This document shows, in pieces, positions 58,864 through 61,268 of a stretch of DNA of 64,000 nucleotides. The position numbers were made by a program, and so were the translations under genes. The DNA is taken from the NCBI RefSeq assembly GCF_988242995.1, contig NZ_OZ547043.1, one strand, 5' to 3'. How positions within the stretch are numbered: position 1 is the stretch's first letter; each line of letters starts with the position of its first letter. The notes under the pieces were generated by a model. That model did not search any database, was not told where the DNA came from, and saw nothing but the letters and a program-made list of their open reading frames with translations.

Positions 58864-59743
58864 ATGTCTTTAAACGATTCTAAAATCCGCAAGTTAAAAT
58901 CTTCTTCCCGTCCGGTAAAACTCTCCGACTCTCACGGTCTGTATCTGCTCGTCAATCCGGGCGGTTCGCGCATCTGGTATCTCAAATATCGTTTCAACGG
59001 AAAAGAATCCAGAGTCAGTCTTGGCGCATACCCGCTGGTCTCACTGGCAGAAGCCAGGCAACAGCGCGACGGTATCCGCAAGTTACTGGCGCAGAATATC
59101 AACCCGGCGCAGCAGCGCATGGCAGAGAAAGCCGCCTGCTCCCCTGAAAAGTGCTTTAAAGCGGTGGCGCTGGCCTGGCACAAAACCAACAAAAAATGGT
59201 CGGCTGATTATGCCGCCCGTATTCTCGCCAGTATGGAAAACCATATCTTCCCGGCGGTTGGTCATTTGCCCGTTGCCAAACTTAAAACGCAGGATTTCAC
59301 TGCCCTGCTGAGGGTTATTGAGGATAAGGGCTTTCTGGAAGTCGCGTCCCGCACGCGGCAGCAACTCAGCAACATCATGCGCTATGCCGTATAGCAGGGG
59401 CTTACCGAAAGCAATCCGGCGCAGCATCTGGATGGCGTTGTCTCCTCCCCCGTAAAGAATCACTACCCCGCGTTACCGCTGGAGCGGTTGTCCGAACTGC
59501 TTGGCCGCATCGGTGACTATCAGCAGGGCCGGGAGTTAACCCGGCTGGCGGAGGTGCTGACACTGCACCTGTTCATCCGTTCCAGCGAACTGCGTTTCGC
59601 CCGCTGGAGCGAGATCGATTTCAGGCACAAAATCTGGACCATCCCCGCCACCCGCGAGGCCATCGACAAAGTTCGGTTTTCGGGGCGTGGCGCAAAAATG
59701 CGTACTCCGCATATCGTACCGCTCTCCCGCCAGGCGATTGCCC
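58864..59743 (+). pseudogene. P4-family tyrosine integrase, disrupted (in-frame TAG at 59392-59394; 3' part replaced by IS1)
   Basis: N-terminus MSLNDSKIRKLKSSSRPVKLSDSHGLYLLVNPGGSRIWYLKYRFNGKESRVSLGAYPLVSLAEARQQRD is a typical P4-like integrase arm-binding region; the same frame continues after the amber codon (ORFs 58771..59394 and 59488..59748) and runs into the IS1 end. Confidence 0.8.
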
Positions 59744-59758
59744 GGTAATGACTCCAAC

Positions 59759-60262
59759 TTATTGATAGTGTTTTATGTTCAGATAATGCCCGATGACTTT
59801 GTCATGCAGCTCCACCGATTTTGAGAACGACAGCGACTTCCGTCCCAGCCGTGCCAGGTGCTGCCTCAGATTCAGGTTATGCCGCTCAATTCGCTGCGTA
59901 TATCGCTTGCTGATTACGTGCAGCTTTCCCTTCAGGCGGGATTCATACAGCGGCCAGCCATCCGTCATCCATATCACCACGTCAAAGGGTGACAGCAGGC
60001 TCATAAGACGCCCCAGCGTCGCCATAGTACGTTCACCGAATACGTGCGCAACAACCGTCTTCCGGAGACTGTCATACGCGTAAAACAGCCAGCGCTGGCG
60101 CGATTTAGCCCCGACATAGCCCCACTGTTCGTCCATTTCCGCGCAGACGATGACGTCACTGCCCGGCTGTATGCGCGAGGTTACCGACTGCGGCCTGAGT
60201 TTTTTAAGTGACGTAAAATCGTGTTGAGGCCAACGCCCATAATGCGGGCTGTTGCCCGGCAT
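59759..60262 (-). CDS. insB: IS1 transposase InsB (expressed as InsAB' by -1 frameshift)
   Basis: 167-aa ORF recognised as IS1 InsB. Confidence 0.9.
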
Positions 60263-60456
60263 CCAACGCCATTCATGGCCATATCAATGATTTTCTGGTG
60301 CGTACCGGGTTGAGAAGCGGTGTAAGTGAACTGCAGTTGCCATGTTTTACGGCAGTGAGAGCAGAGATAGCGCTGATGTCCGGCGGTGCTTTTGCCGTTA
60401 CGCACCACCCCGTCAGTAGCTGAACAGGAGGGACAGCTGATAGAAACAGAAGCCAC
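60181..60456 (-). CDS. insA: IS1 protein InsA
   Basis: 91-aa [46 protein letters not shown]... recognised as InsA. Confidence 0.9.
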
Positions 60457-60511
60457 TGGAGCACCTCAAAAACACCATCATACACTAAATCAGTAAGTTG
60501 GCAGCATCACC

Positions 60512-61268
60512 GAAAATTAGCGCAATTGATTACAGTCAAAATATCAACGGTGATTACAAAGCCACCATTACAGGCGGCGGAGAGGGTATCGCAACGCTGA
60601 TCCCTGTATTGAATGGTGTTCATCAAGCTGGTCTGAGTACCACAATACAATTCACTCGCGCAGAAGACAAAATAATGAGCGGTACAGTATCAGTCAATGG
60701 TACTGACCTACCGACAACTACATTCCCTTCGCAGGGGTTCACCGGGGCGTATTATCAGTTGAATAATGACAACTTTGCCCCAGGAAAAACGGCGGCTGAT
60801 TATGAGTTTTCAAGCTCTGCCTCCTGGGTCGATGTTGATGCTACCGGTAAAGTGACATTTAAAAATGTCGGCAGCAATTGGGAAAGGATTACGGCGACGC
60901 CAAAATCAGGAGGCCCTAGCTATGTATACGAAATCCGTGTGAAGAGTTGGTGGGTGAACTCCGGCGATGCTTTCATGATATACAGCCTTGCTGAAAATTT
61001 TTGCAGTAGCAATGGCTACACACTTCCCCGTGCAGACCATTTAAACCATAGTCGTTCCCGAGGCATCGGGTCACTGTACAGTGAATGGGGAGATATGGGG
61101 CATTACACGACTGAAGCTGGTTTTCAATCAAATATGTATTGGTCATCTAGTCCCGCAAACTCAAGCGAACAATACGTAGTTTCCCTGGCAACAGGTGATC
61201 AAAGCGTATTTGAAAAGCTTGGGTTTGCTTATGCGACATGTTATAAAACCTGTGATTTTCCGTTATAA
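60512..61268 (+). pseudogene. C-terminal fragment of an invasin/intimin-family (YeeJ-like inverse autotransporter) adhesin, 5'-truncated by IS1
   Basis: Frame is open from inside IS1 with no plausible start; the sequence has an Ig-like/Big segment then a lectin-like C-terminal region (...WWVNSGDAFMIYSLAENFCSSNGYTLPRADHL...ATCYKTC) resembling invasin/intimin distal domains; followed by a terminator. Confidence 0.55.

Follow-up and report, generated by a model that had tools for sequence, protein, structure and literature searches.

An intact IS1 without a target-site duplication marks the scar of a deletion between an asnT-linked integrase pseudogene and yeeJ in Escherichia coli

The window analyzed here, a 64-kb stretch of DNA, contains an asnT tRNA gene, a truncated integrase gene, one complete IS1 element and the tail of the adhesin gene yeeJ, arranged in that order. 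The features are as follows (window coordinates, with the basis of each assignment).

58626–58701, plus strand: tRNA-Asn gene (asnT) (ARAGORN, Rfam and RefSeq annotation of identical sequence in relatives)
58864–59743, plus strand: P4-type tyrosine integrase pseudogene, 5′ 880 bp (translation, Pfam, NCBIfam and RefSeq relatives)
59735–59743: 9-mer abutting IS1 on the left, CGATTGCCC, which maps to reference position 2085 (CFSAN061761 orientation)
59744–60511, transposase genes on the minus strand: IS1, complete, IS1A-like, 768 bp (inverted repeats, identity and ORF/profile matches)
59759–60262, minus strand: insB′, inside IS1
60181–60456, minus strand: insA, inside IS1
60199–60205: A6C frameshift motif AAAAAAC, inside IS1
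60512–60520: 9-mer abutting IS1 on the right, GAAAATTAG, which maps to reference position 18076
60512–61268, plus strand: yeeJ, last 757 bp (∼11%) (translation, Pfam, RefSeq annotation and exact protein look-up)
61517–62632, minus strand: glycosyltransferase family 9 (GT9) gene, downstream of yeeJ (ORF list and RefSeq annotation of identical DNA)

The asnT gene is the attachment tRNA of a small island whose integrase adjoins it, starting 163 bp downstream of the tRNA gene. The remnant has the features of a P4-type, tRNA-linked tyrosine integrase, with Pfam matches to Arm-DNA-bind_3 (PF13356), Phage_int_M (PF22022) and, in part, Phage_integrase (PF00589), and with an integrase domain also recognized by NCBIfam. 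It is a truncated pseudogene: the IS1 junction cuts it at nt 880 of 1263, only positions 30 to 76 of the 172 in the catalytic domain PF00589 are covered, and an in-frame stop lies at 59392–59394. In RefSeq relatives, the full-length gene is annotated as a pseudogene with an internal stop. The Yersinia high-pathogenicity island also uses asnT; a remnant of that island was rejected, as this integrase belongs to a small island of ∼10 kb that contains the integrase, an integrase-domain gene and RHS.

Members of the IS1 family are ∼768 bp long and end in imperfect 23-bp inverted repeats, GGTRATG...CCAACTTAYTGAT. The edges of the 768-bp window copy were set by exact matches at both terminal inverted repeats, IRR (GGTAATGACTCCAACTTATTGAT, 59744–59766, plus strand) and IRL (GGTGATGCTGCCAACTTACTGAT, 60489–60511, minus strand); shuffled window sequence gave 0 such matches. 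Both insA and insB′ are intact, NCBIfam transpos_IS1 matches the two ORFs, the InsA zinc ribbon is detected, and the A6C site for programmed −1 frameshifting lies within the element. Compared with the RefSeq-annotated IS1A copies of K-12-derived strains, the element has one mismatch (99.9% identity over 768 bp). It is the only IS1 in the window, and it looks functional because its inverted repeats are exact and insA, insB′ and the A6C motif are present.

To the right of IS1 only the final 252 codons of yeeJ remain, which encode part of invasin domain D3, D4 and the C-type lectin domain (Pfam Invasin_D3/D4 and Intimin_C). This DNA is 100% identical to sequence that RefSeq annotates as yeeJ, and both its domains and its place between asnT and the GT9 and shiA genes are those of the inverse autotransporter adhesin YeeJ. 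The initial annotation had described IS1 as joining an integrase interior to an adhesin gene interior, and the domain assignments on the two sides, together with the cut at nt 880 of the integrase, bear out both halves of that description. The GT9 gene is intact, and gene order toward shiA therefore continues normally; the window is collinear with the matching sequences L010 to L017 up to position 64000.

A simple IS1 insertion leaves a direct target-site duplication (TSD) of 8–9 bp, rarely 10 or 14 bp, at both ends of the element. No such duplication abuts the window copy. The two abutting 9-mers agree at 1 of 9 positions, the longest word common to the two 25-bp flanks is 4 bp, and no direct repeat with two or fewer mismatches was found at lengths of 7, 8, 9, 10 or 14 bp when each boundary was shifted by up to 3 bp. 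The absence of a TSD, which the initial annotation had reported, thus withstands re-inspection across offsets and lengths. Of the two 9-mers given there, the right one (60512–60520) is correct as it stood; the left one, gattgcccg, really occupies 59736–59744, a 1-bp slip that includes the G with which the IS1 inverted repeat begins and is without consequence.

Comparison with other E. coli genomes revealed what is missing. In CFSAN061761 the two breakpoints lie 15,990 bp apart and in EC26 9,705 bp apart, and in both of these IS-free relatives the flanks are 100% identical to those of the window, collinear and on the same strand. Identical, collinear flanks that are this far apart in relatives indicate that DNA is missing from the window, with IS1 positioned precisely at the scar. 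A BLAST search gave no match to the missing segment elsewhere within the 64-kb window; its relocation to another part of the genome is conceivable. A deletion of the intervening DNA had been proposed previously, along with an alignment of the junctions to related genomes to define it; that alignment supports the deletion and yields the two distances above. An inversion was considered and rejected because the flank strands match those of the references and the order to shiA and amn is normal.

The size of the loss depends on the assumed ancestor, being 9.7 kb for one like EC26 and 16 kb for one like CFSAN061761. The lost 10–16 kb was already decayed. It comprised the 3′ end of the integrase, a second integrase-domain gene, small ORFs and ∼6.4 kb of an already fragmented yeeJ, and probably an RHS (toxin) element as well. 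Both the integrase and yeeJ were pseudogenes before the deletion event, and this event was probably of little cost to the cell. Deletions without any IS are known at this locus (in ZF34 the breakpoints are only 4,636 bp apart, and EC26 is without the RHS segment), and a deletion of that kind could be imagined to have come first, with IS1 inserting later at the joint, or else an ordinary TSD could have decayed by mutation. However, a later insertion would leave a TSD, and none is present; moreover, both flanks are 100% identical to the reference right up to the IS1 ends and so leave no room for a mutated duplication. Such histories, to which we assign almost no probability, are effectively refuted by the present data.

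The window allele was found in dozens of public assemblies; by exact look-up, the junction-specific protein P0001 is carried by 43 contigs and protein P0031 by 18. Three independent assemblies (L010, L011 and L013) contain both junctions exactly, with flanks 100% identical to the window; in L011 the whole IS1 element is 100% identical as well, and a prophage at serU sets two of the three apart from the window. The allele is genuine and is inherited, not an accident of assembly. An artefact would have involved two IS1 copies with 10–16 kb between them, the repeat being collapsed and the segment skipped. IS1 is indeed a multicopy repeat (median, 11 places per E. coli genome), and in a draft of what is apparently the same strain (L012, GCA_000731455.1) a gap of 10 Ns takes the place of exactly 58602–60468, but the three independent assemblies cross from the integrase through IS1 into yeeJ with junctions identical to those of the window, and no contig or protein with the reciprocal junctions was found. 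We consider an artefact highly improbable.

Neither junction was present in 5,426 complete E. coli genomes, whether these were queried with the whole joint or with each junction alone. Apparent 100% junction matches among them consisted of pieces joined across hundreds of base pairs, and the nearest single-piece matches were 11 bp off (L003) and ∼20 bp off, at the asnV paralogue (L004). Four scans of GTDB representative genomes and JGI metagenome contigs for the exact junction strings gave 0 matches. Among the genomes searched, either junction occurs only in carriers of the whole allele.

The asnT–yeeJ–shiA locus holds many other TSD-less IS1 deletion alleles, at least nine of them independent, and IS1 is found there at no fewer than 10 distinct positions across strains, in both orientations. 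Strains TUM9868, E89 and CFSAN064036 have a common IS1 junction at reference position 20017 and opposite junctions at 2345, 2609 and 2751, all three without a TSD. JMF1 serves as a control: its IS1 at this locus is a simple insertion flanked by a perfect 9-bp TSD, and its island is intact; c1-17 carries IS1 with an 8-bp TSD at the same or a paralogous locus. The TSD-less breakpoints cluster to within 1–20 bp of each other at three sites, in the integrase interior, in an AT-rich stretch just past the integrase, and at the yeeJ 3′ end/GT9 gene. The fixed-anchor series in these other strains is compatible with either adjacent deletion or IS1–IS1 recombination.

Three further ideas about these alleles were discarded. 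An apparent bias in IS1 orientation came from the search tool, which joins same-strand pieces only; a reverse-complemented IS1 query found deletion alleles of the opposite orientation. A nested origin of the window and L003 alleles was rejected because the window keeps 11 bp absent from L003 and L003 keeps 477 bp absent from the window, so that neither can be derived from the other. A common ancestral IS1 inside the island was also rejected: of 206 genomes with a single match covering at least 80% of the island, the best 60 show IS421, ISKpn26 and IS903B and no IS1. That the interval from the asnT integrase to shiA is a true hot spot of recurrent IS1-driven erosion seems to us rather unlikely. 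If the recurrence reflects selection to lose RHS/YeeJ in commensal A/B1 lineages, the locus would offer a natural case of parallel IS-mediated gene loss; IS1 target preference combined with neutral pseudogene decay is the alternative to selection.

The scar consists of an intact IS1 with no TSD, collinear flanks and 9.7–16 kb of missing DNA. Very probably IS1 mediated this deletion, be it by a one-ended route or by recombination between two IS1 copies. We favor, with moderate confidence, the one-ended route, in which a resident intact IS1 deleted the adjoining DNA by intramolecular transposition (adjacent deletion). IS1 would first have landed at one of today's two junctions, within either the dead asnT integrase or the AT-rich 3′ portion of yeeJ, making a 9-bp duplication. 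Transposase would subsequently have linked one end of IS1 to another target 9.7–16 kb away in the same chromosome, and the intervening segment would have been lost as a non-replicating circle. The remaining IS1 would keep one old flank and one new flank and hence would show no duplication. Both the one-ended mechanism and the order in which the junctions arose are matters that we infer.

Alternatively, two direct IS1 copies, one in the integrase with CGATTGCCC as its TSD and one in yeeJ with GAAAATTAG, may have preceded the deletion, with RecA-dependent homologous recombination removing one copy together with the interval. The IS1 that survives such recombination takes its left flank from one copy and its right flank from the other, and the end product is identical to that observed (intact IS1, no TSD, collinear flanks). 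Since IS1 often lands at this locus, as its positions in both orientations attest, and the window junctions lie only 11–20 bp from the independent IS1 junctions of L003 and L004, two separate hits are plausible. In addition, the absence of a TSD is frequently due to recombination between identical ISs, according to the abstract of PMC11708052. However, this history takes two insertions and a recombination as against one insertion and one transposition, and the searches found neither a single-insertion genome nor one in which two IS1 copies are present, each flanked by a TSD. The window element is also not visibly mosaic, with its one mismatch to IS1A, although this carries little weight if the IS1 copies of the genome do not differ from one another. 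We regard recombination between two copies as possible but less likely.

For the favored adjacent deletion, the corresponding intermediate is a relative with a TSD-bearing IS1 at either junction and the neighboring DNA intact. None was found among complete E. coli genomes, GTDB, JGI or by exact-protein look-up, and the two-step history is therefore unobserved for the window allele. The same junctions with a TSD in related strains, which the initial annotation had named as evidence that would count against its reading, did not turn up either. For an IS1 insertion in yeeJ that still has its TSD, six versions of the predicted protein (C-terminus ...PYMKIRVMTPTY) gave no exact match; both start codon and allele were guessed, which makes this negative a weak one. 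The lack of a TSD-bearing intermediate is compatible with the arrival of IS1 and the deletion having been one transposition-coupled, TSD-less event with no prior resident IS1, a type of event proposed in some cases for IS5 and IS481, and PMC11708052 reports TSD-less IS movements that coincide with large rearrangements. Yet the mechanism is not established for IS1, missing intermediates in sampled genomes are weak evidence, and the cases without TSDs from the long-term evolution experiment (LTEE) in PMC11708052 can all be classified as ordinary adjacent deletions. A single coupled event thus appears very unlikely.

The first description of IS1-mediated adjacent deletion came from the gal region of E. 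coli K-12, and such deletions are reportedly classical, from the work of Reif and Saedler in 1975 and of Turlan and Chandler in 1995. As in the classical deletions, the window has an intact IS1 at the joint, no target duplication, collinear flanks and kilobases lost beside one IS end, and their series of fixed and variable ends is seen at this locus too, in other strains. Mechanistically the favored reading is the same; the window differs in being a natural asnT-integrase/yeeJ allele that involved no laboratory selection, and its TSD-bearing ancestor was not found in the genomes searched. IS1-associated deletion of this kind is already known, indeed textbook, and no new mechanism is involved. 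PMC11708052 gives adjacent deletions and IS–IS recombination as the usual causes of absent TSDs. There, as in the window, TSD-less IS copies flank large deletions, and the IS-del events are read as adjacent deletions, but the element is the IS3-family IS150 in an evolved laboratory clone, whereas here it is IS1 in an allele of a wild lineage.

The deletion accounts for the fusion, via IS1, of a truncated integrase to the yeeJ tail in the source strain. Both YeeJ and no less than 9.7 kb of the asnT–yeeJ interval are probably absent from that strain, along with the RHS segment if its ancestor had one. At base-pair resolution, the allele documents a natural IS1-associated deletion for which controls from the same locus and a series with a fixed anchor are available. 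Among the 96 complete genomes surveyed by Martinez-Gil et al. 2017 (PMC5595812), yeeJ was full-length in only 40%, and the authors ascribed its frequent truncation to recombination at the asnT site, which is prone to it. The window, too, has a truncated yeeJ allele beside asnT; whereas the term "insertion sequence" does not occur in the text of that study, the truncation point here is defined to the base pair and linked to IS1, which explains in concrete terms how some of the truncated yeeJ alleles in the literature arose. Finally, the junction creates an ORF for a specific 256-aa protein (P0001) that starts from a TTG at 60498, inside the IS1 end, and any call of this protein as a "putative adhesin" is an artefact of the IS junction.

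The window holds a single complete IS1 of 768 bp, whose extent is set by exact terminal inverted repeats. These two repeats are the only exact IS1 termini in the 64-kb window, and none occurred in shuffled sequence. The element is a standard IS1: it shares 99.9% identity with copies annotated in RefSeq as IS1A, it contains the A6C frameshift motif, and both of its genes match NCBIfam IS1 transposase models. The features of the locus are as follows.

58626-58701: tRNA-Asn gene (asnT)
58864 to the IS1 junction: P4-type tyrosine integrase gene, starting 163 bp downstream of the tRNA-Asn gene
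59392-59394: in-frame stop codon in the integrase gene
59735-59743: 9-mer left of IS1, CGATTGCCC
59744-60511: complete IS1
59744-59766, + strand: IS1 inverted repeat, exact match, GGTAATGACTCCAACTTATTGAT
59759-60262, − strand: insB′
60181-60456, − strand: insA
60489-60511, − strand: IS1 inverted repeat, exact match, GGTGATGCTGCCAACTTACTGAT
60498-61268: ORF of 256 aa (P0001), with a TTG start inside the IS1 end, running in frame into the yeeJ tail
60512-60520: 9-mer right of IS1, GAAAATTAG

The initial annotation held that this IS1 lacks a target-site duplication (TSD). Indeed, the abutting 9-mers agree at one of nine positions, and with boundaries slid by up to 3 bp and lengths of 7 to 14 bp, no pair with two or fewer mismatches was found, so that re-inspection revealed no direct repeat of 8-9 bp. 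The longest word common to the 25-bp flanks is 4 bp. Of the two flanking strings originally reported, the right one was correct, and the left one (gattgcccg) was one base off, taking in the first G of IS1.

The surrounding gene content is that of an ordinary E. coli chromosome (leuZ-cysT-glyW, dsrA, rseX, zinT, yodB, serU, mtfA, asnT). As had been proposed, IS1 joins the interior of an integrase gene to that of an adhesin gene. On the left, the reading frame ends at the IS1 junction, where the gene is cut at nt 880, and Pfam matches in the remnant comprise the Arm-DNA-binding and central domains, with just the start of the catalytic domain. The internal stop codon is common to all close relatives examined, in which the asnT-linked integrase gene is 1263 bp long and annotated as a pseudogene; the integrase was therefore already dead before IS1 truncated it. 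On the right lie the final 757 bp of yeeJ, which encodes an inverse-autotransporter adhesin, with a partial Invasin_D3, an Invasin_D4 and an Intimin C-type lectin domain (Pfam). This DNA matches annotated yeeJ sequence at 100% identity and is followed by an intact family-9 glycosyltransferase (GT9) gene and shiA.

To define the missing DNA, the junctions were aligned to related genomes. Several complete genomes match both 1.1-kb flanks at 100% identity. In CFSAN061761 (L002), whose coordinates are used below as ref positions, the breakpoints lie on the same strand, 15,990 bp apart. The interval begins with the integrase 3′ end (383 bp), a spacer of ∼1.3 kb, an integrase-domain gene and small ORFs; after these come a gene of 4.2 kb for an RHS core protein, an ORF downstream of it and 6,359 bp of yeeJ. 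In EC26 (L009), the best match over 24.7 kb of the left flank (99.8%), the breakpoints are 9,705 bp apart. The interval is that of CFSAN061761 without a 6.28-kb segment (ref 5551-11830) in which the RHS core gene and the 5′-terminal 114 bp of yeeJ lie; the joint carries no IS. The window has thus lost the DNA between the IS1 flanks, and the loss amounts to 9.7-16.0 kb according to the ancestor assumed. The 15,990-bp interval has no BLAST match elsewhere in the 64-kb window, and an inversion was ruled out, as strand and gene order are unchanged on either side of IS1. In ZF34 (L001) the breakpoints are 4,636 bp apart, the locus having been shortened by other, IS-free deletions. The asnT–yeeJ locus erodes by several routes, IS-free deletions having occurred in EC26 and, differently, in ZF34.

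Neither the whole joint nor either junction is present in 5,426 complete RefSeq E. coli genomes, and the exact junction strings were not found in GTDB representative genomes or JGI metagenome contigs. In a large protein collection, two junction-specific proteins occur: P0001 was found on 43 contigs and P0031, the 86-aa integrase fragment ending ...QAIAR, on 18 short contigs. All P0001 contigs with enough left context, namely two metagenome-derived ENA assemblies (L010, L013) and GCA_929616755.1 (L011), have the order mtfA-asnT-integrase-IS1-yeeJ tail with both junctions as in the window. A one-off misassembly of the IS1 joint is therefore very unlikely. L011 is 100% identical to window positions 57588-64000, IS1 included. 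L010 and L013 have 100% identical flanks and differ solely by 42 mismatches in the IS1 interior (59851-60214), which could reflect gene conversion to another IS1 isoform at this site or a mosaic of several IS1 copies made by the assembler. GCA_000731455.1 (HG976952.1) is 100% identical on both sides of a scaffold gap, in which 10 N (5962-5971) replace window positions 58602-60468, which hold asnT, what is left of the integrase gene and most of IS1. The tRNA-Asn and IS1 repeats induced this assembly break. L010 (1-2962) and L011 (1-2995) carry a lambdoid prophage (integrase, DUF4224, exonuclease VIII) beside the tRNA-Ser gene serU, whereas the window has yodB-serU without a prophage at 57529-57545. 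Hence, at least two genomic backgrounds carry the allele.

When IS1 copies in other strains were placed on CFSAN061761 coordinates, many independent alleles were obtained.

IS1 alleles at the asnT–shiA locus and related sites (ref positions). Landmarks: asnT 968-1043, integrase 1206-2468, RHS 6531-10721, yeeJ 11717-18832, GT9 gene 19081-20133.
Window: left 2085; right 18076; no TSD
HCP17S3_I4 (L003): left 2562; right 18087, 11 bp from the window's right junction; no TSD
A23: left 2547; right 10998; no TSD
DAX4: left 3290; right 20029; no TSD
MB52: left 2641; right inside shiA; no TSD
TUM9868: left 2345; right 20017; no TSD; IS1 in opposite orientation
E89: left 2609; right 20017; no TSD; IS1 in opposite orientation
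CFSAN064036: left 2751; right 20017; no TSD; IS1 in opposite orientation
UK_Dog_Liverpool: left 19389; right 19852; no TSD; 462 bp lost inside the GT9 gene
EM18-18-42 (L004): left equivalent to 2065, in the paralogous asnV integrase; right galactitol PTS gene; no TSD
JMF1 (3543-4310): simple insertion at 2548; perfect 9-bp TSD GAGAGGTAT; island intact
c1-17: simple insertion in an asnV-linked island; 8-bp TSD CAAAATTG

Deletion-bridging IS1 copies without a TSD are common at this locus. Simple insertions here do leave a TSD, making its lack in the window informative. An IS-free deletion with IS1 inserting afterwards is unlikely, as is a single-step transposition-with-deletion leaving no TSD. 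The AT-rich stretch ref 2547-2641 received IS1 at least four times, and the JMF1 copy lies just downstream of the asnT integrase, 1 bp from A23's left junction. Breakpoints are tightly clustered, as seen for L003 (6769) against window positions 60512-60530 and for L004, 20 bp from the position of the window's left junction. The window and L003 alleles were not derived one from the other, each retaining DNA absent from the other. An apparent orientation bias was an artefact of piece-joining in the search and vanished with a reverse-complemented IS1 query.

An intact IS1 without a TSD thus lies exactly at the scar, and we infer that IS1 caused the loss. The usual causes of missing TSDs are adjacent deletion and IS–IS recombination (PMC11708052). 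We lean toward a one-ended adjacent deletion, in which a resident IS1 would attack a nearby target by intramolecular transposition and the DNA in between would depart as a circle. This needs fewer events, IS1 is reportedly classically prone to such deletions (Reif & Saedler 1975; Turlan & Chandler 1995), and TUM9868, E89 and CFSAN064036, which share one junction in the GT9 gene and differ at the other, show the classical signature of deletions growing from a resident IS. Insertion of a second IS1 in direct orientation, followed by homologous recombination between the copies, would yield the same product, and IS1 has independently struck the sites of both window junctions in other strains, but this route requires more events and we consider it a weaker, though real, contender. 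A TSD-bearing intermediate was found neither in the 5,426 complete genomes, where no related strain carries the same junctions with a TSD, nor in GTDB representatives, JGI metagenomes or the protein look-up. Overall, the observation in the initial annotation is confirmed and its interpretation as an IS1-mediated deletion supported by the missing TSD, the collinear flanks and the DNA missing from the window.

As an IS-associated deletion the scar is a standard case of a known phenomenon. Full-length yeeJ occurs in only 40% of 96 complete genomes, and truncation is frequent beside the recombination-prone asnT site (PMC5595812); the window resolves one cause of it to the base pair. In the two closest-sequence relatives, yeeJ is annotated as four CDS pieces (L002 1670-8785; L009 4371-11339), and the protein accessions of these pieces coincide between the two independent complete assemblies, which suggests real inactivating mutations rather than sequencing error. 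Thus yeeJ, like the integrase gene, was probably a pseudogene before the deletion, which would have removed dead genes plus, probably, an RHS element, likely as neutral genome erosion. IS1 deletion recurs at the asnT–shiA interval; that this marks a selected hot spot seems improbable. P0001, named "putative adhesin" in public databases (CDU38186.1, CDP70995.1), is an IS-junction artefact and not a real adhesin gene.
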